A DNA stretch of 64,000 bases, taken from assembly GCA_048940805.1 (NCBI GenBank), contig JBHLOF010000004.1, positions 33,946 through 97,945 on the forward strand, read 5' to 3'. This document shows, in pieces, positions 1 to 34,011 of the stretch. A program made the translations under genes and the position numbers. Position 1 is the first letter of the stretch. Every line of letters starts with the position of its first letter. Source of the DNA: Promethearchaeota archaeon. GTDB lineage: Archaea > Asgardarchaeota > Lokiarchaeia > Sigyniarchaeales > SOKP01. Below the pieces are notes generated by a model. The model made no database searches, was not told the DNA's origin, and worked only from the letters and a program-made list of their open reading frames with translations.

Positions 1-420
1 ATGGATTCCGCTAGCGGTAAAAAGGGTGTTCTTGAGGATGCCGCGCGCATGATAGTAGATCGGATTGGAAATAGCTATGGGCAAGCCACCCAGATGGGTG
101 CTGCCATGCGTACTTCGCACCAGGTATTAGAGGAATTTCAAAAAATGAATCCTGATCAACCTACAATGATTATACTACTTACTGATGGAATTCCCACTGA
201 TGGTGATGCCTTCTTCAATGAGATTAAGAAATTCTCAGAAAATCCTAATGTAGTTATTTATATAGTCGGATTAGGCAACCCAGACGATGAATTGATGGCT
301 CGTGCCGCTACATTATGCGGTGGGGAATATTTTAAACCAGAAGATGCAGGGGAATTGTTAATCTGGTATTCAAAACGAGCACGAGATCTCACAGTAAAAT
401 TAAAAGCTCATAAAGAGTAA
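1..420 (+). CDS. von Willebrand factor A (vWA) domain protein, C-terminal part (5' end outside window)
   Basis: The ORF runs to the window edge. 'PTMIILLTDGIPTDGD...VVIYIVGLG' is a typical vWA strand pattern. The first ~130 nt look GC-richer than the surroundings. Confidence 0.6.
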   Translation: MDSASGKKGVLEDAARMIVDRIGNSYGQATQMGAAMRTSHQVLEEFQKMNPDQPTMIILLTDGIPTDGDAFFNEIKKFSENPNVVIYIVGLGNPDDELMARAATLCGGEYFKPEDAGELLIWYSKRARDLTVKLKAHKE

Positions 421-424
421 ACCA

Positions 425-431
425 TTTTTTT
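425..431 (+). terminator. oligo-T tract downstream of the vWA gene (archaeal-type terminator candidate)
   Basis: T7 run 5 nt after the stop codon. Confidence 0.3.
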
Positions 432-654
432 CTTTACCATCAAATATTAAAAGATTTAATAAAATTCAAGATAATTTTAGTCTTTTTCATTTTAATTTTC
501 AATAGATCATCTAAATGTGATGGAATATCCAAGCTCGATTCTAGTAATAATATAAATTCTTTTTATATATGGTTTCTTAGAAACTTTAAAATTTAATTTT
601 TGAATAAAATATCTTGAAATCTAACAAAATTAATCATATTTTAGTGAAGAAAAT

Positions 655-1575
655 ATGAAAATGAAGGTCAATGCCAAAAAAATGGTTTTAATGATAATAG
701 GAATCCTTTTTGTTCTATCTCTGATGAATCCATTTAGTTTTAATCTTGCTCTTACTGTAAAGGAAAACAATAATTTCAATTTAAATCATGTACAATTGAA
801 GATTTCAGCAATTTCGGGAAGAATACACATTAATAACAATTGGTCTGATAGTAAAACAGCGGGAATATGTACTGGTTCAGGGACAGAATCCGATCCTTAT
901 ATTATAGAAAATTTAGAAATAGATGGACAGGGATTAGGAAGTTGTTTACTGATCGAAAACTCTAATGCCCATTTTAAGATTCAAAATTGTTATTTCAATA
1001 ATACTGGGAGTAGTTATTATGATGCGGGGATTAAATTAGATTATGTAGATAATGGTCAATTGCTAAATAATAATGCAACAGGTGAAGCATTTGGATTTTT
1101 TTTAAATAACACAAATACCATTCTTATTGTAGGAAATCGATTAACGGCTAAAAGAGGTTTATATATTGGAACTAGTTCTGGAACCATTATGTATCTCAAC
1201 GATCTTATAGGACAACAGCTGGATATGTTTATTGCAATAAGAGACGAATCTGCCTATAGGTTTTTTTCGCCTAAAAAGGCAATCTATACGTATAAAGGAA
1301 ATACATTCACACAATATCTTGGGAATTATTGGTCAGGTGATATTAGCAATTCTGATAATAATAATGATGGTATTGGAGATACTCCTCAGATTTATTATGA
1401 TTCATATGATCAACTTATTGATCGGTATCCATTGACAGACCAAGTTAAAAATTATGAAATAACGAGTTTTACGGAAGGATCTGAAGGTATGATCCCAGGA
1501 TATAATCCATTCTTACTGATTGCAATAATGAGTATAATATCGGTATTTTTACTTAAAAAAGTAAGAAAATCATAA
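655..1575 (+). CDS. secreted/surface right-handed beta-helix (NosD / pectin-lyase-fold-like) protein with C-terminal membrane anchor
   Basis: N-terminal hydrophobic signal/TM ('MVLMIIGILFVLSL'). Repetitive 'N-x-N/G' beta-helix-like rungs ('LLIENSNAHFKIQNCYF', 'GFFLNNTNTILIVGNRL'). 'DNNNDGIGDTP...DRYPL' motif typical of NosD-like repeats. C-terminal TM plus basic tail ('LLIAIMSIISVFLLKKVRKS'). Confidence 0.55.
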   Translation: MKMKVNAKKMVLMIIGILFVLSLMNPFSFNLALTVKENNNFNLNHVQLKISAISGRIHINNNWSDSKTAGICTGSGTESDPYIIENLEIDGQGLGSCLLIENSNAHFKIQNCYFNNTGSSYYDAGIKLDYVDNGQLLNNNATGEAFGFFLNNTNTILIVGNRLTAKRGLYIGTSSGTIMYLNDLIGQQLDMFIAIRDESAYRFFSPKKAIYTYKGNTFTQYLGNYWSGDISNSDNNNDGIGDTPQIYYDSYDQLIDRYPLTDQVKNYEITSFTEGSEGMIPGYNPFLLIAIMSIISVFLLKKVRKS

Positions 1576-1785
1576 AATGAACTCTTAAAATAAAAGCTCT
1601 TAAAGAATTCAATTTCTTTTTATTTTTGATAATATTAATCTTTTAATGATTTTTTCTTCATCCTCTTTTTCTTGAAATTTTTGCTTATTCAGATAACATT
1701 AATATTATTAATAATAATTTTGTTAATATTTATAAGAAAAATTTACCCATGAAATATTGAAATCATTAAAAGAAAAAGTTGATGA

Positions 1786-2196
1786 ATAACGAAGGACACT
1801 AAAATTATTACTATTGATAACCGGGGAAGGATTGTATTACCACTGATAACAAGAAAGAATCTCGGGATTACCGAAAATTCGCAGTTGATGTTAGTGAGTG
1901 ACTCTGAAACGAAAGAAATACGAATAACACCCGTTGGAATCACAAAAGATGAAAAACCAATCAAATTCAAAATTACTATGAATGATGAACCCGGTTCTCT
2001 AGGTAAGATTGCCAATGTTTTTGGCGATCTTGGCATTTCTTTAATGTATGGGGAAAGCGTTATTATTGAAAAATCAAAAACAGCGATTTGGACGGTAATA
2101 AGTCCTACTCCCACACATATTTCCCTTGAGGAACTAAGAGAAAATCTGATGACTAACGGGAAAGCTGTGAATGTTGAGATTATACCCTTTGATTAA
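1786..2196 (+). CDS. SpoVT/AbrB-like domain fused to an ACT domain (true start unresolved)
   Basis: The ORF track begins at TTG 1885. The same frame is open from 1786 and encodes 'KIITIDNRGRIVLPLITRKNLGITENSQLMLV', a SpoVT/AbrB swapped-hairpin signature. Downstream, 'ITMNDEPGSLGKIANVFGDLGISL' is ACT-like. Confidence 0.6.
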   Translation: MTKDTKIITIDNRGRIVLPLITRKNLGITENSQLMLVSDSETKEIRITPVGITKDEKPIKFKITMNDEPGSLGKIANVFGDLGISLMYGESVIIEKSKTAIWTVISPTPTHISLEELRENLMTNGKAVNVEIIPFD

Positions 2197-2219
2197 ATTA
2201 AAAATTAGAATGTAGGGGC

Positions 2220-3065
2220 GTGGTTATGGGGAAGAAGAAAAAGAAAGAAAAAAAGAAAAAAATAGAAGATAATACTGAAGATATAGCAGTAACACCTGAA
2301 TATTCACTAGATGTAGCGTTACATTCCACGAAAACGACAGAAACAACTTTACAGAGTTTAATGAGGGAAGTTTCTGAAGAGAAAGGATTTGTTAAAAAAG
2401 AGCAAGAAAAAATTCGACCCCAATTATCCCATGAAAGTAAAAGTGAAATCGCGGAAGCTTATGCTTTAGAGGATGTCCCAATAGCAGAGAGAAAAAAAAC
2501 TCAGAAGCGAGAGAGACCCCCACTTGTTTCCGAATCAAAAAATTTAGTGAAGCCCATGGAGTCCAAAGAGCAAGAGTTAAAAACTAAACCAAAAATACAG
2601 GTAGAAGTCACAACAGTTCCCACTCCTGTTGAAAAAAAACCATCAGTGTCTAGTGAAGATGTAGCTCCCTCACCTATCATTGAGGAAACTCTCGGTATTA
2701 AAAAAGAAAATATCTATCTTAAATTATCAGAGTTTTTTGAGGATCTACTGGGAGGTTATAGTGCGAGGTATGAAAGGTGGGAAAATTCGATATCTAACAT
2801 TCTGGCAATTATGAGGAAAATGAGAAAGATAACAAAGAAAAATACTGAGGATTTAACAATTAGTATTCAAAATTTATTTGGGAAAATCCAAAATCAGTTA
2901 GAACTTTTCAAAGTTAAACGTGATGAAGTTGAAAAAGTAGCCGAAGTAGACATTGAATCAATGTCAGGTGAGTTAAAAAGAGTAATGGGATTGCTTGAAT
3001 TACAGGTCAAAGAATATCGATTGAAAAGAGAAACAGATGAATTAATCCATGCATTAAAATACTGA
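2220..3065 (+). CDS. K/E-rich low-complexity protein with helical C-terminal domain, function unknown
   Basis: Poly-Lys N-terminus (MGKKKKKEKKKK; ATG at 2226), a long charged linker and a predicted helical C-terminal ~110 aa. It lies 49 nt upstream of the actin-family gene on the same strand. Confidence 0.5.
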   Translation: MVMGKKKKKEKKKKIEDNTEDIAVTPEYSLDVALHSTKTTETTLQSLMREVSEEKGFVKKEQEKIRPQLSHESKSEIAEAYALEDVPIAERKKTQKRERPPLVSESKNLVKPMESKEQELKTKPKIQVEVTTVPTPVEKKPSVSSEDVAPSPIIEETLGIKKENIYLKLSEFFEDLLGGYSARYERWENSISNILAIMRKMRKITKKNTEDLTISIQNLFGKIQNQLELFKVKRDEVEKVAEVDIESMSGELKRVMGLLELQVKEYRLKRETDELIHALKY

Positions 3066-3114
3066 TTATCACTGTTTTTCAGTTTAATATAAAATTAATA
3101 AATTTATATTTGCC

Positions 3115-4293
3115 ATGGCATCTGAAATCAAAAGTCAAACTCGACCACTTATACTCGATATTGGGAGTAATTTTTTTCGATTAGGATGGGCAGGAAGTGA
3201 TTATCCTGAAGTTATTGCCCCGAGTATCTATGTAAATAATACAGATTATTTATTTACCTCAGATGTAATTGATGGTTTAGAAGATATATTTGTGGGAGAG
3301 GATAATGTCGAGAATCAGTTATTTGGCCATGAAGCTTTAAAATATTCAAATGTGCTTAAAGTGCATGAAGTAAAGAGTAATTATAATATTTTGATGAAAT
3401 ATTTTCATTTTCATTATAAACAACTTGAAATTGAGAATGAATATCTTTTCAAACAGCCAATTATCATTATTATTCCTTTCTTTATGTCAGAAATAGAGAA
3501 AACAAAATTATCTGAGATGTTTTTTAACGTTTTTGATTTTCCTGCGTTATTTTTTTTACCGGATAGTCAAGGAGTGTTAGGTATATTACAAAAATCCAGT
3601 GGAGTGATTATAAATATGGGAGACGCGAACACATACATTACATCTTTTCTCCATGGCTTTACTAACATAATGGCAAGAGACACATACCCAATTGCAGGAA
3701 AGGACCTTACAGATGCGCTTCTAAATATGCTTTTAAAGGGATCCGCTAAGAACTTATATCTTGATTATATGATTGCAAAAGAAATTAAAGAAAAACTCGC
3801 ATTTTGCGCATTAAATCCTGAAGAAGAATTAAAAAGGATAAAGGATGGTCTAACTAAATTCAAGAGTGCAGTTGATTTACCTGATGGTTCGAAACTTGAA
3901 ATTAATTCAGAAAGAATCCAACTTGTAGAACCCTTATTTAATCCTTCAGTAATTCATATGGATTATATTAGTTTACCTGAGGCTGTAGTAAATGTTATCC
4001 GAACATGGGATCGGGAGGATTGGAGTGAACTATTACCAAATATTGTTCTTGCTGGCGGTGCTAGTTTAATCCCTGGATTAGAAAAAAGGTTAAAAATTGA
4101 AATTTCGAAGTTCTTTTCTGAACGATTAAGAGATAAAATTAATATAATTGCTACTACCGGAAGAGATACAATTAGTTGGGTTGGAGCAAGTGTACTGTGG
4201 GCTCAAGGAAAACTAACAAAAGGGTGGAGCTATAATCCCAATGCTCCAACTGAAGAAAAAAGTTCCAAAAATAATGATCTAAATTCTAATTGA
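3115..4293 (+). CDS. actin-family ATPase, divergent actin-related protein (Arp-like)
   Basis: Actin-fold motifs in the correct order: phosphate-1 'LILDIGSNFFRLGWAGSDYPEVIAPS', phosphate-2 'GVIINMGDANTYITSF', adenosine 'VLAGGASLIPGLEKRL', and connect-2 'WVGASVLWAQ'. Confidence 0.85.
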   Translation: MASEIKSQTRPLILDIGSNFFRLGWAGSDYPEVIAPSIYVNNTDYLFTSDVIDGLEDIFVGEDNVENQLFGHEALKYSNVLKVHEVKSNYNILMKYFHFHYKQLEIENEYLFKQPIIIIIPFFMSEIEKTKLSEMFFNVFDFPALFFLPDSQGVLGILQKSSGVIINMGDANTYITSFLHGFTNIMARDTYPIAGKDLTDALLNMLLKGSAKNLYLDYMIAKEIKEKLAFCALNPEEELKRIKDGLTKFKSAVDLPDGSKLEINSERIQLVEPLFNPSVIHMDYISLPEAVVNVIRTWDREDWSELLPNIVLAGGASLIPGLEKRLKIEISKFFSERLRDKINIIATTGRDTISWVGASVLWAQGKLTKGWSYNPNAPTEEKSSKNNDLNSN

Positions 4294-4312
4294 AGAAAAG
4301 GAAGCAACTATT

Positions 4313-6916
4313 TTGAGTGTCAACTTAGAGATTAATAAAGAGTTTTTAGAGGACTTCCAGAAAAAAATTATCATAGCACGTAAATTACTGTTTTCTGCAA
4401 ATCATAAATGGGCGTCAAAATTACTCGATAATTTAGGTATGGCAATCGAGAAAAACGATTGGCTAGACATACAGAAAAAGCATCAATTAAATATGATCAT
4501 TTCGAATTCATGGTGGATTTATTTAAATTCTCTGGTAAAAAGAAAAGAGGGAAAAGTTGAAATCGACCTTATAAGGTATATTGATGCATATAAACGATTT
4601 TTCGCCTTTTTAACAAGTTTAGATGATTCTTATTTATTTTATAATTTTGGAATAAATCTTCTTATGCAATTTATTACGATGGAGGATTTATCGCAGATTG
4701 GGATAACAAAATACATAAATTCCTTTTCTGTTGAGTTAGAAAAAAGAGAAGAATATCAAAAGTTAATCGAATTACAAATTTTATTAATACATTTAAGACA
4801 ATCAGTTAGTCCATCAGAGCATTTCCATCTAGGTATGGAGATTCTTGGAAAAACTATACTTAAATTAGAGCCCAGTAAGAGAGCATTATTTATTTATATG
4901 ATATTAGAAAATGTATGCATAAAATATCAACTTATGGAAGATTCTTCAGAATTCATTAAATCAATAGTTAAGATTATGATAAACCGCCTTCCACAATATC
5001 TAAAAAATGAATTTAGTGGTATCAGTAGGATCTCTATTAATGAGAGAAGTTTTAACACAATCATAATCGATCTTGAAGAAACAATTAATTATTTAAATGA
5101 TATTGGGGAATATCCTTGGATTATATTTATAATTAGAAATATATTTTCAAAAATAAAAGATTACCAATCGTTTGGTGATGCAATAACATATATACGTAAA
5201 TTTATTGATTTCTCAATAAGGAGAAATCGATTTGAAATTGCGTTTGAAATCTATGATTTTTTGGAAGATCTTTTTATTTACCAAACAGACCTTTCTTATG
5301 ATAATATTTTGATCGAACTCTGGGTTGAAGCATGTAAAAAATTCGTAGATATGAAGGAGAAAAAGTATTTATTACAGTCTCTTGAAAAATTGAATAATCA
5401 TCTAAAGATACCTCAAACAAGTGCTGAAATTTTTCATTATTTTTATACCTGTGATAAACTGTGGCAATTTAAATCAATGTTCTTTTCATTAGAGCAACGA
5501 GATTTCTGGAGAATGATGTTTTATCGAGCTTTATTCGAGGAAAAAAACTTTAACATTGCTCAGAAAATCGTTCCTTATCTTGATAAGGATTTAGGATCAT
5601 TATTATCCGATATAATTTCACTATCTAAAGAGGCAGAATCCTTTAAGGAAAAGATATACTCATTTGGCACGGAGGAAGATTTTCGTGTATTAGATGATAA
5701 AAATTTCGTAATAAAAGATATAATAATTCGGATTAATTCAATTGGGATAATTTCATATAGAATAAATTCGACTAATAACCAAATTGTTGAAGGAACTTTA
5801 AGGAGAGAAACGTGGAATGACACCCAAATTATTGAAATTTATAATGAATTGTTTTCTGAACCAGAAAAACGAAAATTTACATTCACTTTACATGAATTTG
5901 GTGAAATATTATACATTTTTTTACCAAAATTAATCCGAGATTTCTTCAAATCTTTTAAAATAAAAAGTTTGAATATAGTACCCCAAATTTATTTTATACT
6001 TGATAGTATGACTATACCATTTGATTTAATTTATGATAATAATTTCTTTTTATTAAAATATTCAAGTGGGTATAAAATTGGAGAGATCCCTCTTGGAGGC
6101 ATAGCATTTGAACATGAATCTTTGATAAAATCTCCTTCAGTATCCTCCTCAACAAAACATAATGTCTTAATTGTTGATTCAATAAATTCTAAAATACCGT
6201 TGAGATGGAATGAAGAACTCCAAAGAAAGGAATTAATCTATCCGTTCTCAGCGGGAGCAAATGAATTGAATTATATTGTAGATTTTTTCAATAAAATTAA
6301 TGAAATCGACCAAATTAAAACACTTATCGGGCCTTCTTCAACTAGGGATGCAATTTTGACTCACGTTACAAAAGATCTTTACCATATAATTGTCATCGTT
6401 GGAAATATCTTCTATTCAAAATGGAGTCCTAAAGATAGCTTTTTTTTAACAAATGATAATGAAACTATAACTTTCAGTGAACTGTGTAGTTACTTGCATC
6501 GAAAGGATGCAAAAATTCATCCCTTTTTATTTTTTAATGCCCAAATTTTTGATATTGAGGGTCAAAAATTAAGAAATGTTGTAAGACCTTTTGGTGAAAT
6601 TATCTCACAATTTAACCAAGATGAAATTACCGGTATAATTGTAAGACCATATCCATTATTTAATGAAGAAACAAAAGAAATTATTTCCCAATTTTTTCTT
6701 AATCTCCTTAGAAATGCAAGTCAAGGAGTATCTCTTCTTAAAGCCCGTCAAAAATGTATAGCAAATAAAATGGAAAAAATGGTAGAAGACCAATTTAAAG
6801 ATACATCTATGGAGGGTGGAAGTGTAAGAATCGATTTAAGAAGTAGTTTGGCCGTCTCAAGCTATTTACTTTTTGGAAAACCATGGAAAAAATTAAATTC
6901 TGAATCAAGGATATAA
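4313..6916 (+). CDS. large helical-repeat (TPR-like) protein with C-terminal CHAT-like (caspase-fold) domain lacking the catalytic dyad
   Basis: 867 aa. The C-terminal ~290 aa follow the CHAT layout: 'IYFILDSMTIPFDLI', 'LIGPSSTRDAILTHV..YHIIVIVGN', 'PFLFFNAQIF', and 'GIIVRPYPLFNEETKEIISQFFLNLLRNASQGVSLLKARQ'. It starts 19 nt after the actin-like gene. Confidence 0.6.
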   Translation: MSVNLEINKEFLEDFQKKIIIARKLLFSANHKWASKLLDNLGMAIEKNDWLDIQKKHQLNMIISNSWWIYLNSLVKRKEGKVEIDLIRYIDAYKRFFAFLTSLDDSYLFYNFGINLLMQFITMEDLSQIGITKYINSFSVELEKREEYQKLIELQILLIHLRQSVSPSEHFHLGMEILGKTILKLEPSKRALFIYMILENVCIKYQLMEDSSEFIKSIVKIMINRLPQYLKNEFSGISRISINERSFNTIIIDLEETINYLNDIGEYPWIIFIIRNIFSKIKDYQSFGDAITYIRKFIDFSIRRNRFEIAFEIYDFLEDLFIYQTDLSYDNILIELWVEACKKFVDMKEKKYLLQSLEKLNNHLKIPQTSAEIFHYFYTCDKLWQFKSMFFSLEQRDFWRMMFYRALFEEKNFNIAQKIVPYLDKDLGSLLSDIISLSKEAESFKEKIYSFGTEEDFRVLDDKNFVIKDIIIRINSIGIISYRINSTNNQIVEGTLRRETWNDTQIIEIYNELFSEPEKRKFTFTLHEFGEILYIFLPKLIRDFFKSFKIKSLNIVPQIYFILDSMTIPFDLIYDNNFFLLKYSSGYKIGEIPLGGIAFEHESLIKSPSVSSSTKHNVLIVDSINSKIPLRWNEELQRKELIYPFSAGANELNYIVDFFNKINEIDQIKTLIGPSSTRDAILTHVTKDLYHIIVIVGNIFYSKWSPKDSFFLTNDNETITFSELCSYLHRKDAKIHPFLFFNAQIFDIEGQKLRNVVRPFGEIISQFNQDEITGIIVRPYPLFNEETKEIISQFFLNLLRNASQGVSLLKARQKCIANKMEKMVEDQFKDTSMEGGSVRIDLRSSLAVSSYLLFGKPWKKLNSESRI

Positions 6917-7021
6917 ATAATAAAATTAAATAAAGATCAAATTAAGGTATAATTACAAAAATTAAAAGTGCCTCTTGAATAAAATAAACATAATATTAAT
7001 AATTTACTAAGGTTAACATCG

Positions 7022-7561
7022 ATGTCAGATCCCCGTATAATAGAACTAAGAGTTGAAAATAAGAAATTAAAACAGGAAATTGCATCTTTAGAAGAAAAGA
7101 TTTTATCTTTAGTTGGAATGTTTAATATTGAATCTTCTGGAGGGCAGGATAAAAAAAATGTACTCAATGATCAAATTTTTAATTTAATTGGATCAACAAA
7201 GGAACAACTTAATATTGTAACCCCCAAAATCGACGAATTTTATGTAAGAGAGTTGAAAAAACTTAGCCAAAAAGGAATCCCTATTCTAATGATTACGAAC
7301 GATAGAGCAAATTTGCCCAAACCTTATCGTCAAATTTATGATGATTTGAAAATTACAGAGGGGATAAGTATTATTAACAATCCAAATGTAAGGTTCTTGT
7401 TATTATTCAATATAACTCAAGCTATCTACTCTGGTGGTTCACTAGATAAAGAAGAGCTGGAAAAATCAATATTAGTAGTAACAACAATACAAGAAAAAGC
7501 AAAACTAAGAAAGATTGCAGAGATTTTCTCTTTAATGCTTCCCACTTTTATGAGGAAGTAG
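7022..7561 (+). CDS. coiled-coil protein with TrmB-C-terminal-like (inactive PLD-fold-like) domain, no HTH
   Basis: N-terminal heptad segment ('IIELRVENKKLKQEIASLEEKILSL'). It is followed by 'KEQLNIVTPKIDEFYVRELKKLSQKGIPILMITN', which resembles the TrmB regulator C-domain. The protein contains no His at all, so no HKD motif is possible. Confidence 0.4.
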   Translation: MSDPRIIELRVENKKLKQEIASLEEKILSLVGMFNIESSGGQDKKNVLNDQIFNLIGSTKEQLNIVTPKIDEFYVRELKKLSQKGIPILMITNDRANLPKPYRQIYDDLKITEGISIINNPNVRFLLLFNITQAIYSGGSLDKEELEKSILVVTTIQEKAKLRKIAEIFSLMLPTFMRK

Positions 7562-7568
7562 TAAAAAC

Positions 7569-9776
7569 TTGTTTTTTTTCAAAATGGGTCATAAAAAATC
7601 TATTAATTCTGAAACGATAGTAGAACGATTTGGTTTAGATTCAGACATTTATAAAGAGTTAATGAATTTTTTAAAAGAAAATCTTTCAAACGATTCCATT
7701 TATGAAAATAATCTAAAAGAATGGAATAAAGTTTTTACGAATATTTACGGGAATAATTTGAGTCCAGGTTTATTTTTGAAGCATACATATTTTGTCCTTA
7801 TATTAAAAATTGTTGTAGTTTATAAAATAAGTTTAGTAAAAGGCATTAACTTCGAAGAGATCTATAGTCGGTTAGCTGATATTGATAAAGAGGTATCTCA
7901 TATTTTTAATTTCAACTTTCTTTTTTGGTTTACTCCTAAAAAAGAGTTATTTGAAAAGGTGCTTAATGAGATTCAAGGCTTAGAGTTCGTAAAGGAAGAT
8001 ATCTTTAGTTATTTATATCAACATATCTTTGTTCCCGATATCAGGCATAAGAGAGGGGAATTCTTCACACCAACACGCCTTGTAAATAAGATGGTCGATA
8101 ATTCATACAAATTCGGATCAAAAGTTCTAGATCCTTCATGCGGTTCAGGTACGTTCTTAATAGGTATTATATTGAAGATTTTTGATTCTAACAAGTCAAA
8201 TCTGTCAAAATTTCAAGCATTTTCTAATGTTTTTGGTTTTGATGTGAATCCACTAGCGATAATCACAGCAAAAGCGAACATTTTCTTATTAATTATAGGA
8301 TATTTGGAGCCAAAGGATAATGCGATCTCACATATTAATATTTTCCATTGCGACTCCTTATTTCCAGAGGATTATGAGAATAAATCAGATGTTAATTTCA
8401 TCGATTTATATAATTCCTTCGATTTAATTATTGGAAATCCCCCCTGGATAACGTATAAAGATTTGAATAATAAGGCATATCAAAATAGAATTCGAGAATT
8501 AACTGATCAATTGAACATTAAACCCTCAAGTCAATACATTACTCACATTGAGTTAGCAACAGTTTTTTTTTATGCAATCCCAATCAAGTTTTTAAAAAAA
8601 AAAGGTGAAATCTTTTTTGTAATGCCTAAAAGCTGCTTGAATGGTGATCATTGCTATGAATTTAGGTCTTTTTCAATTTTTAATGCGGACCTAGAAATAT
8701 GGGATTTTCCCAATAATTACTTTTTCAATGTTGAACATGTTTGCTTAAAGGCTGAATACATTGGGATAAATGATAACATCTCAACTCGAGTACACTATCC
8801 AATTAAAGCTAAGATTTTTGATGGAAACATTAATCTTCTAAAAGAATTATCATATTCAAGTTTGAAAGTTGAGAATGATGGTGCACGGTTAATTTTGCCC
8901 GAACAAGATTTAAAAATTCTGAATCGAGTGGAAAATAGTGTTTATAAAAAAAGATTTGTTCAAGGAGCTACATTGGTCCCAAGAACACTTGTATTTTTCC
9001 AAATCAGAATAGAAAAAGATAACAGATTAATAATTGATTCTGATCCTGATGTATTATCAAGAGCAAAAGAAAAATGGATGTTCCGATTTCAAAATAAAGA
9101 AATTGAAGATAAATTCCATTTTAAAACATTTTTAAATATACATCTAATCCCATTTCATATAAAAATATTAAAAGATGTGTTTCTTCCAGTGGATGAGCAC
9201 CTTATGTTTAATATTGAATTTTTAAAACGCAATCCAAAAGCTTTTGAATTCTATAATGAAATAAATAATTTTTATCTAGAGAACAAAAAAGAAACAAGTG
9301 ATATTAATACCTTATCTGATAATTTAAATTATTGGAATAAATTGCAAAAGCAAGTAAATAATAAATCATTTATTGTTGTTTATAATGCTAGTGGCTCTAA
9401 TTTAAAAGCCGCGGTTATAAATAATGAGGATCAGAAAGTGATAATTGGATCTGAGAATTACTATCTTTCAACCGATTCAGAAGAAGAAGCTTATTATTTA
9501 TCTGCAATTTTGAATGCTCCCAATCTTTCAAGGAATATAAAGATAATAAAAAGTTCCAGGCACATACATAAACGACCCTTTAATTTCCCGATTCCTAATT
9601 ATAATCAAAATAATATAATTCATAAAAAATTAGCAAAAAAGGGAAAAAATTGTCATGTAGTAGTGCAAGAGTTATTTATGAATAATCCGAAAATTACTTC
9701 TAAAAAGGTAAGAATTTTCATTAATAGAAAGTTAGTAAAAATAGAAGAATTGACAGATAAGATTGTCTTCAAATAA
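7569..9776 (+). CDS. N6-adenine DNA methyltransferase (gamma-class, Eco57I/TaqI-like) with C-terminal target-recognition region
   Basis: Motif I 'VLDPSCGSGTFLI', 'FGFDVNPLAI', and motif IV 'DLIIGNPPWITYKD', in the order I then IV. An alternative ATG start exists at 7584. Confidence 0.85.
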   Translation: MFFFKMGHKKSINSETIVERFGLDSDIYKELMNFLKENLSNDSIYENNLKEWNKVFTNIYGNNLSPGLFLKHTYFVLILKIVVVYKISLVKGINFEEIYSRLADIDKEVSHIFNFNFLFWFTPKKELFEKVLNEIQGLEFVKEDIFSYLYQHIFVPDIRHKRGEFFTPTRLVNKMVDNSYKFGSKVLDPSCGSGTFLIGIILKIFDSNKSNLSKFQAFSNVFGFDVNPLAIITAKANIFLLIIGYLEPKDNAISHINIFHCDSLFPEDYENKSDVNFIDLYNSFDLIIGNPPWITYKDLNNKAYQNRIRELTDQLNIKPSSQYITHIELATVFFYAIPIKFLKKKGEIFFVMPKSCLNGDHCYEFRSFSIFNADLEIWDFPNNYFFNVEHVCLKAEYIGINDNISTRVHYPIKAKIFDGNINLLKELSYSSLKVENDGARLILPEQDLKILNRVENSVYKKRFVQGATLVPRTLVFFQIRIEKDNRLIIDSDPDVLSRAKEKWMFRFQNKEIEDKFHFKTFLNIHLIPFHIKILKDVFLPVDEHLMFNIEFLKRNPKAFEFYNEINNFYLENKKETSDINTLSDNLNYWNKLQKQVNNKSFIVVYNASGSNLKAAVINNEDQKVIIGSENYYLSTDSEEEAYYLSAILNAPNLSRNIKIIKSSRHIHKRPFNFPIPNYNQNNIIHKKLAKKGKNCHVVVQELFMNNPKITSKKVRIFINRKLVKIEELTDKIVFK

Positions 9777-9782
9777 AAAATT

Positions 9783-12700
9783 TCAAGCAAATTTTTCTTT
9801 CCACTCATCTAACGCATCAAGAAATTCTTTTTTGACTTTGTCTTCTAATATAGACCTTGTGGATCTTAATCGGCTAATCCATTGTCTTATTACATTTGCA
9901 GTAACAGCACCATGAGATTTCAATACTATATCTGAAATTTCTTGAAGGGAAATTGATAATATATTCCCTGGTGAAAGTTCTGTGTCTTGAATCAATTTAT
10001 CAATTAAAGAACTTAATCTACTACCACTATTAAAAGAGATTTCCAAATCTGGACTTTCAATTGAAGGCCCAAAATCTAATGATTGATTATTCTCATCTTC
10101 CTTAACGTATTTTTCTTTCCACTTGAAAAACACCATTACAAAATCTTCTTTAATCTCGCCACTGAGTGGATTCTTGATTTTACGGAGTTTGCTAACCCAA
10201 TCTTTTATATCTTTTAGAATCACAGAATATCCTTCTGTTTCCAAAATAATATCAACTATATTTTGCATACATTTACTGATGTCAATTCCACTTAATTCTG
10301 AGAAATTTTTTTCAATAGTCTCAAAATTTTCTCTTAATTCTGATGAAGGATCCTTCTTACTTGATTCTACGCTTCCAGTTATAGGCGAAATATTGTCATC
10401 TGTTTGGAATTGAGATTGAGACAAACCAGGACTAAAATATTCTTCTTCATAAACAGAAATTGAATTTTCTGCCTTTGATTTAGAAGCTGAAGGATTAATA
10501 GAAGACTGATCAACTCTTGATGAGTCACTTGGATGAGTGTGATTCAATATTCCCCATTTCCACCTTAATAAATCACTTTTAATTTGTTCTCTCTTTGATT
10601 CTTCCAAGATTTCATCGGTATCTGTCAAATTTTTCTTCCATTTGATAATTTGGGGATATCCTTGTAATTCTAGAACTACTTCAACTAATTTTTCAATCTG
10701 TTCTTTTAATTCTTTCTCGCTAAATTCTCCTATTTTTTTAAGAAAGATTTCAAATGTTTTATTGATTTTATCGGGATCGACCGTTTCAACTTTATATTCT
10801 TCCGAAATCATTTCCTCCTCTAAATCTTTTTGAACTCGTTCTTCGATTAGGGGGGGTCGGAATTCAGGGGGATAAATTAATTCAGTAGAGGAAAATTCAC
10901 TATTCAATCTATTAAGTTCATTAATAACATATTCTTTCAATTCATCAGATAAGGGAGTAAAAAGCTTCTCTATTTTTCCAATCAGTAATTTAAGCTCTAA
11001 TAAGTTAAGCGAGATTCCATTATTTTCAAAAGCAACGTCTAATAGCTTTTTTAATCTTTTAGCTATTTTTCTACCGGAATATTCATTTATATTTTCAATA
11101 ACTTCATTAAATCCTTTATTAATTTGGACATCTCTAGAAGGAAGAGCTTCATTTTTAATTTTAGATACAATTGGAATAAATAGATCAATCAACGGCCTAA
11201 AAGTAGTGTAAAAGCCGATTATATCATAATAAGGTTTCTGATCAATTTTTTGAAAAATTCCAAAAACCAAGTATGATTTATCCCCCAAAATCGCAATTGA
11301 TTTATTATCTAATAATCTTAAATAATCAAAATTTGGCTTTTCCCTAATAGCTGATGCATATTTGTTATTATGATCTTCCGATGAAATAAATGTGATATGT
11401 GGACCCATGTAATCAACTTTTTTATTCATTATTTTCTCTAAAGAAGATTTTTCTAATTCATTATTATCAGATGAATTTTCTGTTGTTTCTTCTATCTCCA
11501 CCTCTACTTTTAGAGTATATTCTTTTTTCCACTTTTCTATATGTTCTAAAAGTAAATACTGAGTATTTGAATCTAAATGTTTTCTAATGACTAACAACCT
11601 ATTTAACCACCCTTGTATGCTCTCGATAACTACCGATTCAGGATGAATTTCAGATATTTTTGACAATACTTCAGCAATATGATGACTGATTTCAAATCCT
11701 TTAAGCTCAGATACTTTTTTTGATACATTATCTAGCATTTGTTCAAATTCTTGCTTATGCTGCTTTGAAATGGATAGTTGTTTTTTCTGAGGTTTTTGAG
11801 GTTTAGTCTGAGTTTTCTCGCTTAGTGAAAATTCACTTTTTGTTTCAGCAAAAGAATCTAGATTTAATTTCTCTAGTGGAATAAAATTTGATAAACTGGG
11901 AACGATGATAGTTAACTCCTCTGTCGATTTATCAATTAAGATTGACACAATCTCTCTAATTTTCTCATAACTACTCACAGACAATAATTTCTCAAACACA
12001 AAACCATCGTTGCTGATGTAATCAGTTAGAATGTTGTATAATGACCTTTCTAACTTTTCAAATTTTCGAGCACTCAAGGAACTCTGTCCACCAGGTTTAA
12101 GAGAGAGTTCATTTATTCTTTTGTTAAGTGATTCACCTAAGTTTCTAATGAAGGTCTTAAAAGCATCAACTTGTTGAGGATTATCTGGATTCTCCATATC
12201 TTTTACGATAGCTCTAAATTGGGAAAACATATTTCCTGCAATTTCTTCAGATTCACTTACTTTTTTCTTAACAGCTGTGATCAACTTATTAATATCTCTA
12301 GCATCTATGGCTGACTGATTCTTTAGTGGGGTAATTAATTTGATTATATCAGTAAGGATTACTTCAGCAAACTTCTTAACATTTAGTTCAACTTCAGATA
12401 AAACTTCAGTTGTCTGACTGGTGTTGCTCTGATCGCATGTAGCATCAAGTAAATCTTGACTGATTCTTTCGAGATCTTGAAATAAATCATCTTGAAATTT
12501 TTCTAGATTTGAATCTTGCTTTACTTCATTTTTTTGAGCTTCAGAGGATTCTTCTATTAATTCTGTTATACTATTTAATATAGCCGCAATAGGGGGAATT
12601 GTAACATAATGAGGTAAAGAAGATGATGTCTGAAGGAGTAATTTTTTCTCAACAAGATTATCAATAATTTGTTGTATCTCTTCTTCTGATTGTTCACTCA

Positions 12701-12806
12701 TCATAGCTTTTATTTCATCCAAAGTTAGAGGAACTTTTCTCATACTCTCAGAATAAAGCTTAATTTCTTTATCAGAAAGATTAAACGATTTCAAAAGGGC
12801 TCTCAT
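9783..12806 (-). CDS. 1007-aa TrmB-like winged-helix protein with coiled coils, TrmB-C-like segments and four copies of a ~55-aa two-Trp repeat module
   Basis: N-terminus 'FNLSDKEIKLYSESMRKVPLTLDEIKAMM..IIDNLVEKKLL' matches the TrmB-type wHTH pattern. Internal repeats are listed in the findings. Confidence 0.6.
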   Translation of the reverse strand: MRALLKSFNLSDKEIKLYSESMRKVPLTLDEIKAMMSEQSEEEIQQIIDNLVEKKLLLQTSSSLPHYVTIPPIAAILNSITELIEESSEAQKNEVKQDSNLEKFQDDLFQDLERISQDLLDATCDQSNTSQTTEVLSEVELNVKKFAEVILTDIIKLITPLKNQSAIDARDINKLITAVKKKVSESEEIAGNMFSQFRAIVKDMENPDNPQQVDAFKTFIRNLGESLNKRINELSLKPGGQSSLSARKFEKLERSLYNILTDYISNDGFVFEKLLSVSSYEKIREIVSILIDKSTEELTIIVPSLSNFIPLEKLNLDSFAETKSEFSLSEKTQTKPQKPQKKQLSISKQHKQEFEQMLDNVSKKVSELKGFEISHHIAEVLSKISEIHPESVVIESIQGWLNRLLVIRKHLDSNTQYLLLEHIEKWKKEYTLKVEVEIEETTENSSDNNELEKSSLEKIMNKKVDYMGPHITFISSEDHNNKYASAIREKPNFDYLRLLDNKSIAILGDKSYLVFGIFQKIDQKPYYDIIGFYTTFRPLIDLFIPIVSKIKNEALPSRDVQINKGFNEVIENINEYSGRKIAKRLKKLLDVAFENNGISLNLLELKLLIGKIEKLFTPLSDELKEYVINELNRLNSEFSSTELIYPPEFRPPLIEERVQKDLEEEMISEEYKVETVDPDKINKTFEIFLKKIGEFSEKELKEQIEKLVEVVLELQGYPQIIKWKKNLTDTDEILEESKREQIKSDLLRWKWGILNHTHPSDSSRVDQSSINPSASKSKAENSISVYEEEYFSPGLSQSQFQTDDNISPITGSVESSKKDPSSELRENFETIEKNFSELSGIDISKCMQNIVDIILETEGYSVILKDIKDWVSKLRKIKNPLSGEIKEDFVMVFFKWKEKYVKEDENNQSLDFGPSIESPDLEISFNSGSRLSSLIDKLIQDTELSPGNILSISLQEISDIVLKSHGAVTANVIRQWISRLRSTRSILEDKVKKEFLDALDEWKEKFA

Positions 12807-13195
12807 TTTTCAAATCTCAATTTTCTGTAAGGGTAAATTATTTATAGTTTCCTTATATATCATGAAACTTCTTACTTTTTAATTTTCTGATAACAAAAAC
12901 TTGGGATTATTAAATGTACAACAAAACTAAATTTAAATCGACTATCAATATGATTAATTGTTTTATTTAAGACAATAAAAACTAAATTAAGTGATTCCGA
13001 CATAAGATTTAGGAATCAGTATCATTAAAATAATGTACTTTAATTCATTTTTAGAAGACATCTATACGAAATTTGATTCCAAGAATAAAAAATCCTTAAA
13101 AGGCAACCAAATTTTTTTGAAAAGGTTTTTCTTTAATGAAATATTATTTTAAGTGAAGTTGTGTGAAAAAAAGAATAAATTAATTGTGAAATAAA

Positions 13196-14347
13196 CTGAA
13201 TTTTGAAGAAATTGGCATTAACCATGGAAATGTTAATGCTTTACGGAATTTGAATATACTCTCGCCGACGCCTGTTCAGAAAAAAGCAATACCTTTAATC
13301 TTAAAGGGCAATAATATTATGGCTCAAGCTAAAACTGGGAGTGGAAAGACTTTAGCCTTTGTACTTCCTGTTATCGAACGACTAGCTTTTAAACAAGTTG
13401 AGTGTTTGATTTTGGAACCGACTAGAGAACTTGCTAAACAAGTTCATGATGTAATTAAAAGTTTAGGGAACCATAAAGTAAAATCACTTCCAATTTATGG
13501 AGGTGTGTCTATTGCTAATCAGATAAGGAAGCTAGAGCAGGGGGTTAATATTGTTGTGGGGACTCCTGGACGTATAATTGATTTATATAAGAGACGGAAC
13601 TTAAAGTTTAATAATATTAAATTTGCAATTGTCGATGAAAGTGATCGTATGTTTGATATGGGATTTGCTCCCGATGTTAAATATATTTTAAATCAAATAA
13701 AAACCGATTATCAATTTTTATTATTTTCGGCAACTTTAAGTTCTGATATAAGAAGATTAGTTAAGAAGTTTTCTAGAAACCGATTTGAGTTTCTTAATTT
13801 AAGTAGAGACAATCTAACGGTGGGTAGTACAAAACAATTTTACTACATGATCGATAGATTCGAAGAAAAATTTCGTACTTTTCTAAAAGTGTTGAAAAGA
13901 GAAAAACCAAAACATACTTTAGTATTTGTTAATACAAAAAAAACTGCTACTTGGTTGTCAAATAAATTAAGAACACTGAAAAATTTTAACTATAGAGTTA
14001 ATGTAATCTCAGGAAGCTTATCTCAAGCTCAACGGGAAAAAATTCTTTCAGCTTTTAGAGATCACAAAATTAATATGATGATTGCTACAGATGTCGCTGC
14101 TAGAGGTTTAGATATAGAAAATATTTCTCATGTTATAAATTATGATGTCCCCAAATATCCTGATGTATACGTTCATCGGATTGGACGCACATCAAGGATG
14201 GGTAAAAGGGGTGTCGCAATTACATTATGTCTAAGAGATGAGTATGAATACTTGTGTCATATTGAAGGTTTAATAGATAAGGAAATTAGGGAAAAAATCT
14301 TAGAAAGAAAAAAAGATACAAGAAAATATCATAATCCTTTCTACTAG
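13196..14347 (+). CDS. DEAD-box ATP-dependent RNA helicase (motif II variant DESD)
   Basis: Q motif 'F..(17)..PTPVQ', motif I 'AQAKTGSGKT', motif II 'VDESD', motif III 'SAT', motif VI 'HRIGRTSRMG'. The Q-motif Phe lies upstream of the TTG at 13250 used by the ORF track, so I extended the start to CTG 13196. Confidence 0.9.
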   Translation: MNFEEIGINHGNVNALRNLNILSPTPVQKKAIPLILKGNNIMAQAKTGSGKTLAFVLPVIERLAFKQVECLILEPTRELAKQVHDVIKSLGNHKVKSLPIYGGVSIANQIRKLEQGVNIVVGTPGRIIDLYKRRNLKFNNIKFAIVDESDRMFDMGFAPDVKYILNQIKTDYQFLLFSATLSSDIRRLVKKFSRNRFEFLNLSRDNLTVGSTKQFYYMIDRFEEKFRTFLKVLKREKPKHTLVFVNTKKTATWLSNKLRTLKNFNYRVNVISGSLSQAQREKILSAFRDHKINMMIATDVAARGLDIENISHVINYDVPKYPDVYVHRIGRTSRMGKRGVAITLCLRDEYEYLCHIEGLIDKEIREKILERKKDTRKYHNPFY

Positions 14348-16599: not shown

Positions 16600-17214
16600 T
16601 TGCCTAGCCGTCGTGGGGATGGAACACTTGTATTCAAAATTTGTTTTTATGGACCTTCACTTGGGGGAAAAACTACCGCACTTGATTGGGTTTATCGTCG
16701 TGAAGGTTTAGCTTCAGGTGATATGCAACAAATTCAAGACCCAACAGGACGTACTTTGTTTTTTGATCGGGTAGTAGCAAGAGTTTCTAATGTTGTGTTC
16801 CAGGTTTATACAGTTGCAGGTCAGAGACGTCACAAATTTCAAAGACAAACGGTATTGAAGGGAACTGACGCAGTCATATTCACATGGGATTCTTTAATAG
16901 ATCAATGGGAAGAAGATATGTGGTCTCTTAAAGAACTGCTCAGATTCTACGGAGATAAATTAATCCCTCCCGAAGCTTTCGCCCCACCAGAGGTACCTCT
17001 TGTATTGTTAGCAAACAAACGTGATTTAGTAGATATCGTGGAGATTTCTAAAATACGGAAAGTCTTAGATGTCGCCAGGCTAAATCACTGTTTAATTTAT
17101 GAAACGATTGCGATCCAAGGAATTAATGTAAAACGGGCTTTTGTATATGCAGCCCGTCAAGCAGTGCTTAATCATTATAAAAAACTTTCAGGAAAGTCAA
17201 TGGAAGAAACCTAA
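16600..17214 (+). CDS. MglA-type small Ras-superfamily GTPase
   Basis: P-loop 'YGPSLGGKTT', 'GRTLFFD', G3 'TVAGQ' (Thr instead of the Ras Asp) and G4 'NKRD'. Layout is collinear with bacterial MglA. Confidence 0.8.
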   Translation: MPSRRGDGTLVFKICFYGPSLGGKTTALDWVYRREGLASGDMQQIQDPTGRTLFFDRVVARVSNVVFQVYTVAGQRRHKFQRQTVLKGTDAVIFTWDSLIDQWEEDMWSLKELLRFYGDKLIPPEAFAPPEVPLVLLANKRDLVDIVEISKIRKVLDVARLNHCLIYETIAIQGINVKRAFVYAARQAVLNHYKKLSGKSMEET

Positions 17215-32529: not shown

Positions 32530-34011
32530 TTGTGTGAAATGAAACTCTATGAATATATGGCATATGAACTCATTGAGAAGATAAAAAATAACGAAATAAC
32601 GATTGAAAATGTTATTCAACGAGTTTATGAAAGAATAGAGGAAACTGATCATAAAATACATTCATTTGTTTATTTATCGAAGGAAAAGGCAATAACTAAG
32701 GCTCAAAAGTTAGACGATAACTTAAAAAATGGTAGGAATATCGGAAAGCTATATGGCTTACCCATAGCAGTAAAGGATCTTATCTGTATAAAAGATAGTC
32801 CGACTACTTGTGGTTCCAAGATTTTGCAAAATTACTATCCTCCTTATAATGCTACTATAATTGAAAATTTGATTGAAAGAGAAGATGCAATTTGTGTTGG
32901 GAGAACAAATATGGATGAATTTGCAATGGGTTCTTCAACTGAAAATAGTAGCTATGGTCCAACTTTAAATCCATGGAATTTAACTCATGTACCAGGAGGA
33001 TCGAGTGGTGGCTCAGGGGCATGTGTAGCATCAGGTCAAACACCGGTCTCTTTAGGAAGTGATACTGGTGGAAGTATAAGATGTCCCGCGTCCTATTGTG
33101 GGGTAGTAGGATTAAAGCCTACATATGGGAGAGTTTCTAGATATGGTTTAGTCTCATATGCGAATTCGTTGGATCAAATTGGCCCTTTATCGAGATGTGT
33201 GTATGATACAGCATTACTATTAGAAATTATTGCGGGGGTTGATCCTTTAGATTCTACAACGGTAGATGTCAAAGTGGATAATTATACGGAGTTACTCGAA
33301 CAACCAATAGATAATATGACAATTGGTGTTCCAAAAGAATTCCTAGGGGACGGGATAGAAAAGAGTGTAAAGGATAAGGTTAATAGCGCAATTGAGAAAA
33401 TTTGCAGTCTAGGTGTGAAAAAAATTGAAATTTCATTTCCACATTTAGAGTACGCCATCCCGACATATTATCTAATAGCTATGAGTGAAGCAAGTTCGAA
33501 TTTAGCTAGATATGATGGATTAAGATACGGTTTAATGAGTGATAATACTAAAGGAGATGTTTATGATGTGTATAGTCAAACACGGAATGAGAAATTTGGT
33601 GCTGAGGTAAGACGGAGAGTTATTTTAGGAAGTTATGCTCTTTCTGCTGGTTATTATGATATGTTCTATATGAAAGCATTAAAAGTGAGGTCTGTAATTA
33701 AGAAAGATTTTCAAAAGGCTTTTGAAAAATGTGATGTGATTGTTAGTCCTACGATGCCTACTCCTGCTTTCAAAATTGGTGAACTTTTAGATGACCCTTT
33801 GCAAATGTATTTAATGGACGTTTTGACTTGCCCCGTTAATCTTGCAGGGTTACCTGCTCTTTCAATACCATGTGGATTTGATAATAAAGAACTCCCCATA
33901 GGTTTTCAAATAATAGGTAACTATTTTGATGAAAAATCAATTCTTAATGTTGGATATCTCCTTGAACGAGATTTAAATATTTACAGAAAAATAGCCCCTT
34001 TGAATAACTAA
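32530..34011 (+). CDS. gatA: aspartyl/glutamyl-tRNA amidotransferase subunit A
   Basis: Amidase signature 'GGSSGGSGA...GSDTGGSIR'. The ATG at 32539 is a more likely start than TTG 32530. Confidence 0.9.
   Translation: MCEMKLYEYMAYELIEKIKNNEITIENVIQRVYERIEETDHKIHSFVYLSKEKAITKAQKLDDNLKNGRNIGKLYGLPIAVKDLICIKDSPTTCGSKILQNYYPPYNATIIENLIEREDAICVGRTNMDEFAMGSSTENSSYGPTLNPWNLTHVPGGSSGGSGACVASGQTPVSLGSDTGGSIRCPASYCGVVGLKPTYGRVSRYGLVSYANSLDQIGPLSRCVYDTALLLEIIAGVDPLDSTTVDVKVDNYTELLEQPIDNMTIGVPKEFLGDGIEKSVKDKVNSAIEKICSLGVKKIEISFPHLEYAIPTYYLIAMSEASSNLARYDGLRYGLMSDNTKGDVYDVYSQTRNEKFGAEVRRRVILGSYALSAGYYDMFYMKALKVRSVIKKDFQKAFEKCDVIVSPTMPTPAFKIGELLDDPLQMYLMDVLTCPVNLAGLPALSIPCGFDNKELPIGFQIIGNYFDEKSILNVGYLLERDLNIYRKIAPLNN

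Follow-up and report, generated by a model that had tools for sequence, protein, structure and literature searches.

What is the function of a 1,007-residue archaeal protein that begins with a TrmB-type winged helix, the hallmark of a transcription regulator family, and continues into repeated copies of an unrecognised module? The gene that raises this question lies on the minus strand (9783..12806) of a 64,000-nucleotide (nt) window, the whole stretch of DNA analysed here, which spans positions 33,946 to 97,945 of contig JBHLOF010000004.1 from a Promethearchaeota archaeon (GenBank assembly GCA_048940805.1); all coordinates below are those of the window. An earlier inspection of the DNA without database searches, hereafter the sequence-only reading, had proposed a TrmB-like protein with four internal repeats. 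We find that the repeat-bearing open reading frame (ORF) and its internal repeats are real, that there are five copies of an ~80-amino acid (aa) module without relatives in Pfam, PDB or BFVD, and that these are carried on a head resembling the chromatin protein TrmBL2. On this architecture we infer, tentatively and with a probability of roughly 40%, an oligomeric, multivalent scaffold for the docking of proteins, as opposed to a sugar-sensing transcription factor of the classical kind.

Five copies of an ~80-residue module

The predicted N terminus aligns residue for residue with the consensus 'MKxLLKSFNLS' of 59 homologues, and the ATG at 12806 is therefore the true start. The protein is encoded by low-GC DNA, is abundant in K, E, I and L, and is acidic overall (isoelectric point (pI) 5.05, net charge -39). 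Databases name the family only as 'hypothetical protein', and no description of it was found in the literature searched on TrmB, PLD and Asgard.

BLASTP of the whole protein against itself returned the identity match only, and the repeats were shown instead by Smith-Waterman alignment of segments with shuffled controls and by hidden Markov models (HMMs). Windows of ~77 aa ending at each of the four copies first proposed (A to D) were aligned pairwise and compared with 1,000 shuffles, giving z = 15.9 (C-D), 13.9 (A-C), 8.3 (B-C), 6.4 (A-D), 4.5 (B-D) and 2.8 (A-B, weak). All four peptides listed by the sequence-only reading are present, at aa 377-430, 704-752, 847-900 and 954-1007 (nt 11517-11678, 10551-10697, 10107-10268 and 9786-9947); the lower nt positions it gave are exact and the upper ones are 15-30 nt too high. 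The pairwise alignments take in one more helix on the N-terminal side and an 'ELxGxEIS' turn, and therefore the unit is ~80 aa (77-84 aa), not the ~55 aa first suggested. An HMM of the four copies, a step that the same reading had recommended, picked up an additional copy outside its training set at aa 562-636 (i-E 8e-9), raising the count from four to five. An independent profile, to which 37 paralogues of ~650 aa each contributed their only module, at the C terminus, and the target's own family nothing, matches all five copies at 27-60 bits, and the best of 500 shuffled proteins reached 5.7 bits. The fifth copy (module 2 in sequence order) has no tryptophan, which is why the sequence-only reading missed it, and the two-Trp pattern once taken to define the module is frequent, not defining: in an alignment of 58 module sequences, only G18, L52 and L59 are ≥90% conserved across module positions and proteins.

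Each copy has a long history of its own. No DNA-level tandem repeat was found within the gene, so the duplications are old. Among 60 aligned sequences, all 54 full-length homologues (~990-1,070 aa) have the modules at identical positions, and the 6 shorter ones (885-913 aa) are without the fifth module. Identity is 63-69% within one module position vs 14-36% between positions, with modules 4 and 5 closest (36%), which indicates ancient copies, each under a constraint of its own. Nowhere is the protein more conserved than in the third helix of module 1 (WLNRLLVIRKHLD; also given as WLNRLLVIRKHLDSNTQYLLLE), where mean column identity is 0.91 over aa 401-425 and 12 residues in aa 400-412 are invariant. 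To judge from this conservation, the inserted module 1 may hold the most constrained function.

The module is a four-helix bundle and a new domain family

Modelled alone with AlphaFold from the 58-sequence module alignment, module 4 is a four-helix bundle (predicted local distance difference test score (pLDDT) 95.3, predicted template modelling score (pTM) 0.83), and four helices are also present in each of modules 2-5 in a full-length AlphaFold2 (AF2) model. The original description of the module as unrecognised held throughout. Pfam searches with the whole protein and with ten separate modules at E ≤ 10 gave nothing consistent, the sub-threshold module matches being scattered and mutually inconsistent (BAR, NICE-3, WCOB and IF-2B); NCBIfam returned only MukB and RecQ noise, and a profile search of PDB sequences with the module returned designed proteins and noise only. 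In Foldseek, the module has no significant match in PDB (best E 2.1) or in BFVD (best E over the two databases ~1-2). The module is a new domain family, without relatives in these three databases.

The highest query-normalised TM-scores in Foldseek are those of the Vps28 C-terminal domain (2g3k, 0.73; E 7.1, prob 0.33) and of HPt domains (8pbw and 3myf, 0.63-0.68), these matches as a group having E 5-7.5 and prob 0.25-0.35. Both are like the module in size and topology, a resemblance of common fold only. The modules have no Pfam match to the Vps28 C-terminal domain (PF03997) at E ≤ 10 and no sequence similarity to it; HPt domains carry a conserved phospho-accepting His on the second helix, whereas the 58-sequence module alignment has no near-invariant His column. 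An ESCRT-flavoured reading, based on fold matches to the Vps28 C-terminal domain, MITD1 and Vta1, was not adopted, all of these being non-significant matches to generic folds. Derivation of the module from the protein's own winged helix was also considered, on weak HMM matches at aa 28-61, and rejected (hhalign against the winged-helix block, prob 3.7%).

A TrmBL2-like head with a split PLD-like domain

The full-length AF2 model, made from the 60-sequence alignment, has a mean pLDDT of 67.6 and a pTM of 0.35. Its N-terminal 556 residues comprise a winged helix-turn-helix (wHTH), a helical stalk and a phospholipase D (PLD)-like α/β domain (Table 1). A Foldseek search of PDB with this model placed TrmBL2 first (5bpd, 5bpi and 5bqt; E 4.5e-3, prob 1.0), followed by the PLD-fold proteins NucT, Nuc, Zucchini and FAM83 and then by TrmB (3qph and 2f5t), with prob 0.99-1.0 and E 4.5e-3 to 0.1 across the head matches to these three groups, which agrees with the TrmB-like head first proposed. 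A profile of the superfamily matches the wHTH of the archaeal structure 2d1h (E 9e-4). Pfam PF11495 (Regulator_TrmB) has no match in the target and matches 1/57 relatives (E 1.1e-3). The stalk (aa 73-270) is modelled as what is probably a coiled-coil or helical bundle.

The 'TrmB-C-like segments' of the sequence-only reading turned out to correspond to the halves of the split PLD-like domain; the sugar-binding part of a TrmB effector domain is absent. The halves are separated by an insertion consisting of a disordered linker, module 1 and a second linker. They are contiguous in paralogues, and the module insertion is absent from many relatives and kept in a subset. The AF2 model has no β-rich domain after aa 556, that is, the sugar-binding β-barrel subdomain of TrmB is missing, and the expression H.K....D, for the HxKxxxxD (HKD) motif of PLD enzymes, has no match anywhere in the protein; as judged from sequence, the PLD-like domain is non-catalytic. 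Without an HKD motif the protein is not a phosphodiesterase, and without the β-barrel it is not a sugar sensor; on these two grounds the head is TrmBL2-like rather than TrmB-like, neither enzyme nor sugar sensor.

Acidic linkers and two conserved short motifs

Because the pTM is low (0.35) and the domains are individually confident, the domains behave as beads on a string. Between modules, pLDDT falls below 50 at aa 655-674, 756-817 and 903-928. The linkers are rich in Ser (17%), Glu (15%) and Lys (9%), in line with what was first reported, and are acidic, with net charges of -5 to -8. They are poorly conserved except for two short motifs (Table 1). The first is followed by two 10-residue blocks with pLDDT of 51 and 35 (aa 651-670), and its core 'PPEF' is present in 69/207 fetched proteins; 'SPG..Q.QF', from the second, is present in 80/207.

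Distribution, copy number and paralogues

Homologues of the full protein number 80, at 35-65% identity; all are unnamed, and those with a taxon label are Asgard, mostly Promethearchaeota or Lokiarchaeota. A search of 1.84 billion representative proteins with the module profile matched 125 representatives, which were sorted with sub-domain HMMs. Nearly every full-length match has the wHTH-helical-PLD head, with one to five modules: ~37 representatives of 610-720 aa form a single-module class, and other full-length matches carry two, three, four or five. Copy number is the evolving variable of the family. The genome with locus-tag prefix GF317 codes for a three-module and also for a one-module protein, so the two forms are true paralogues. 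BLASTP of the target against a single-module paralogue (P0124) confirmed that wHTH (E 1e-7), PLD-like domain (E 4e-13) and module (E 8e-8) are homologous.

The only clearly different module-bearing architecture is P0117, a 920-aa metagenomic protein with three modules (aa 537-829) among Lys/Ala/Pro-rich spacers and with Cys-rich, zinc-ribbon-like segments at both ends. A word-indexed profile search for relatives of the head outside the phylum, a method of limited sensitivity, gave family members only. The profile matches so far confine the module to Loki-type Asgard archaea, the labels of the proteins concerned being Promethearchaeota or Lokiarchaeota.

The single-module paralogues have a genomic setting of their own. 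A convergent CDP-alcohol phosphatidyltransferase gene is adjacent, on the downstream side, in 61/62 loci and a divergent gene for a ~453-aa protein in 53/53; in loci L040 (8491-14911), L041 and L042-L121 the paralogue is flanked almost invariably by the same two genes. By eye, the ~453-aa protein, encoded upstream, has a VWA-like N terminus, a RING/PHD-like Cys/His cluster and a zinc ribbon. Beyond the two flanking genes lie a Zn-ribbon/LOR protein and then a 388-aa protein that appears, also by eye, to combine a gelsolin-like N terminus with a HeH/SAP-like C terminus.

Proposed function and alternatives

As a docking scaffold, the gene product would be a structural or adaptor protein specific to Promethearchaeota (Loki-type Asgard). 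Its head has a TrmBL2-type layout of winged helix, long helical stalk and catalytically dead PLD-like domain; if it behaves like TrmB and TrmBL2, stalk and PLD-like domain would assemble it into a dimer or tetramer. Each chain displays five lineage-specific four-helix bundles, one looped out of the PLD-like domain and four on tethers, the tethers being acidic, disordered Ser/Glu-rich linkers in which at least two conserved short linear motifs could serve as further docking sites. Across the family every module position has preserved a sequence identity of its own; for this reason the five modules are probably not equivalent as docking sites, and several partners would be gathered on the protein as on a multivalent hub.

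What the analysis shows is the domain layout, the repeats, the fold class, the distribution and the module's want of known relatives. Several points weigh against the scaffold proposal. Oligomerisation is carried over from relatives, and we infer both the binding of partners by the modules and the absence of DNA binding. Model confidence for the stalk is moderate (pLDDT 42-77 by 10-residue block). The fold search covered PDB and BFVD and may have missed cellular proteins, still uncharacterised, that are structurally related to the module; four-helix bundles are also able to bind small ligands, lipids or metals. In the head, the wing of the winged helix has a net charge of +2 (superfamily mean, +0.6), and the winged helix is the best-conserved part, with a mean column identity (majority-residue fraction) of 0.62-0.76 and an invariant K54. 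It may bind DNA in the backbone-type manner reported for TrmBL2.

These last features, a net positive wing and a well-conserved wHTH, would also be expected of a true DNA-bound TrmB/TrmBL2-type regulator or chromatin protein whose modules recruit or sense factors, either as a chromatin-tethered hub or as a one-component regulator with four-helix sensor domains. We consider this rather unlikely. TrmBL2 and TrmB are the closest structural matches, and Pfam TrmB (PF01978) is matched at E ≤ 0.01 in 6/57 superfamily members (best 1.2e-7), but in the target the match (aa 5-72, the full model length) stays under the cut-off (15.8 vs 25.6 bits, E 0.013). At the recognition position, the target's helix (aa 36-53, MSEQSEEEIQQIIDNLVE) carries a net charge of -6, and its counterpart is net-negative in 46/57 superfamily members, the wHTH domain averages -3.3 across the superfamily, and the whole protein is strongly acidic. 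There is no conserved adjacent target operon, and distant family members lie in unrelated contexts. The acidity of this helix is indirect evidence against canonical reading of the DNA major groove, and the winged helix probably does not bind DNA in the canonical, sequence-reading way; with the pI of 5 it makes DNA binding doubtful. Of the 'transcription-factor head' first described, the TrmB-like fold stands; the functional label is not secured, given the sub-threshold Pfam match, the acidic helix and the pI.

An adaptor at membrane or lipid surfaces is improbable. Here membranes would be bound by the amphipathic stalk and PLD-like domain, and the modules would bring in factors of the cytoskeleton or of membrane remodelling. 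The stalk has weak apolipoprotein-like matches that point this way (Pfam Apolipoprotein in 8/57 members, best 5.4e-8; in PDB, ApoA-IV at E 1.2e-3 and ApoLp-III at 0.049), but the Pfam matches are under curated cut-offs and of a kind typical for the compositional or periodicity similarity of long amphipathic helices, and the resemblance may be compositional. MITD1, which combines an MIT domain with a PLD-like domain that binds membranes, is among the fold matches (prob 0.28-0.44), though not significantly. Two genomic associations could be read in the same sense: the gene adjoins a conserved actin-family cluster in ~28/36 close relatives, and the single-module paralogue adjoins the phosphatidyltransferase gene. 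The neighbours, however, are convergent rather than co-oriented, and the synteny with the actin-family cluster is lost in distant members and may reflect no more than inherited gene order. The protein showed neither a transmembrane segment nor a lipid-binding motif.

The docking scaffold has a bolder form, for which we see only a slim chance: a prokaryotic example of a eukaryote-style hub, in which a DNA- or membrane-anchored oligomeric core would carry at least ten non-equivalent modules, the motifs YPPEFRPP and YxSPGLxQSQF would be bound by partners or by the protein's own modules, and the assembly would organise a Loki-specific cellular structure, linked for example to the neighbouring actin-family cluster. 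If so, the one to five modules per paralogue would tune valency. Finally, a chance or compositional origin of the repeats in a helical, Lys/Glu-rich protein, to which low-GC coding, K/E/I/L richness and the weak A-B pair might point, is refuted by the other pairs (z = 4.5 to 15.9), by the independent profile scores set against those of shuffled proteins, by the common four-helix fold of all copies and by the conservation of their positions across 60 homologues.

Features of the gene and its neighbourhood

Table 1. Features of the target gene and of its neighbours in the window.
Feature	Window coordinates	Residues (aa)	Strand	Basis and remarks
Complete ORF	9783..12806	1-1007 + stop codon	minus	Start matches family consensus; 80 homologues
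TATA-like elements 'atatataagg', 'actataaataa'	12838..12860		minus	A/T-rich; 32-54 nt upstream of ATG; read by eye
TrmB-type winged helix-turn-helix	12591..12806	1-72	minus	AF2 H-H-H-H-β-β, pLDDT 70-86; acidic recognition-position helix
Helical stalk	11997..12590	73-270	minus	Five long helices, 73-124, 130-163, 169-202, 210-233, 246-270; AF2
PLD-like α/β domain, N-terminal half ('EELTIIVPSLSNFIPLEKL')	11859..11996	271-316	minus	AF2, Foldseek
Module 1	11514..11765	348-431	minus	Four-helix bundle within loop of PLD-like domain; HMMs, AF2
PLD-like domain, C-terminal half	11139..11405	468-556	minus	AF2 β strands 470-534; strand 'GDKSYLVFG'
Module 2	10887..11135	558-640	minus	Trp-less; immediately after PLD-like domain; HMM i-E 8e-9, 43 bits (paralogue-only profile), AF2 four helices
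Motif YPPEFRPP	10851..10874	645-652	minus	Linker after module 2; P646, P647, E648, F649 ≥90% conserved
Module 3	10545..10775	678-754	minus	HMMs, AF2
Motif EEEYxSPGLxQSQF	10407..10451	786-800	minus	Disordered linker; S792, G794, Q797, Q799 invariant in 60 sequences
Module 4	10101..10349	820-902	minus	Most typical copy; 60 bits with paralogue-only profile; own model pLDDT 95.3
Module 5	9786..10025	928-1007	minus	C-terminal; absent from ~890-aa family members; HMMs, AF2
VWA	1-420		plus	Cut by window edge
ACT-like, 103 aa	1885-2196		plus	
281-aa protein	2220-3065		plus	
Actin-family, 392 aa	3115-4293		plus	PF00022 E 4e-46
867-aa protein	4313-6916		plus	Weak CHAT match
179-aa protein, N-terminal coiled coil	7022-7561		plus	Weak PLDc_2 match, E 1.2e-4, under cut-off
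735-aa N6-adenine-methyltransferase-like protein	7569-9776		plus	
DEAD-box helicase	13250-14347		plus	Adjoins target, divergent
Arf/Ras-family small GTPase	16600-17214		plus	79-94% identity across related loci

Upstream of the start codon, the TATA-like elements are a candidate archaeal promoter and sit within a 443-nt intergenic region common to the target and the divergent DEAD-box gene. Gene context was compared in 34 related loci from GTDB genomes, plus others. A tightly packed plus-strand cluster occupies window positions 1-9776; its order is conserved in ~28/36 related Loki-type loci, and it may be an uncharacterised actin-associated module. The DEAD-box gene changes place among related loci: in some it is upstream of the target, in others it separates the target from the methyltransferase-like gene, which marks a small hotspot of local rearrangement. 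Neighbour identity across related loci is 57-93% vs 46-61% for the target, and the small GTPase is far more conserved than the target. Seven of the loci (L011, L017, L025, L030, L032, L035 and L036) come from metagenome-assembled genomes labelled Hermodarchaeota, Hodarchaeota, Odinarchaeota or Thorarchaeota; in synteny they match the Promethearchaeota-labelled ones, and their small GTPase, where present, is 79-93% identical; their phylum labels look inconsistent.

Three possible links between the neighbours and the target were rejected. The 179-aa protein resembles a TrmB-C-like body without the winged helix; BLASTP gave no significant match between it and the target's PLD-like domain, and homology of the two was not accepted. 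Functional coupling to the actin-family cluster was set aside in favour of clade-level gene order, given the convergent orientation, the DEAD-box gene that switches sides and the absence of the link in distant family members (P0080, P0089, P0092 and P0099), which have unrelated gene contexts. A defence-system reading fell as well: PADLOC, none of whose families matched the 1,007-aa protein, recognises in the neighbourhood nothing but the methyltransferase domain encoded by the adjoining gene. The target is a stand-alone gene, and its neighbourhood leaves the function unfixed.

Significance

Insertion of a domain and amplification of a module from one copy to five have here converted a TrmB/TrmBL2-type core into a modular, putatively scaffolding protein. 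No known organisms stand closer to eukaryotes than Asgard archaea, and long, conserved multidomain proteins that are rich in disorder and carry linear motifs recall eukaryotes, so that their origin is of interest. The family is conserved, with one copy per locus, and the existence of cultured Loki-type strains makes the localisation and partners of the protein directly testable. A caution for annotation also follows: a winged helix alone is poor ground for calling such proteins transcriptional regulators.

Comparison with known systems

TrmBL2, a chromatin protein of Thermococcales (5bpd, 5bpi, 5bqt and 5box), shares with the target the winged helix, the helical stalk, the PLD-like α/β domain and the lack of a sugar-binding β-barrel. 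It is ~260 aa long, against 1,007 aa, and its stalk is one coiled-coil helix, whereas that of the target spans ~200 aa in five helices. Unlike TrmBL2, the target has a module inserted in the PLD-like fold and four more after it, together with an acidic recognition-position helix, and it has no detectable sequence similarity to the TrmBL2 chains in PDB. TrmB itself (PF01978 plus PF11495; 3qph and 2f5t) has in common with the target the winged-helix type, by the weak PF01978 match, and the PLD-like first effector subdomain. In TrmB, a C-terminal β-barrel completes the sugar pocket; the target is without the barrel, and TrmB is without the target's extra modules and linkers. PLD nucleases and phosphodiesterases (Nuc 1byr, NucT 6ehi and Zucchini 4ggk) share the fold of the target's split domain (aa 271-316 and 468-556). 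These enzymes carry HxKxxxxD, whereas the equivalent strand of the target reads GDKSYLVFG, and the domain is non-catalytic, as in TrmB-family proteins.

The ~650-aa single-module paralogues (P0124 and P0130 among them; all uncharacterised hypothetical proteins) have the winged helix, the PLD-like domain, the module and the phylum in common with the target. They differ in having one C-terminal module after a Pro/Ser/Thr/Gln-rich linker, an uninterrupted PLD-like domain and conserved neighbours other than the target's, namely the CDP-alcohol phosphatidyltransferase and the divergent ~453-aa Cys-rich protein. Set against these systems, the head of the target is of a known kind, and the amplification of the module and its insertion on that head are new.

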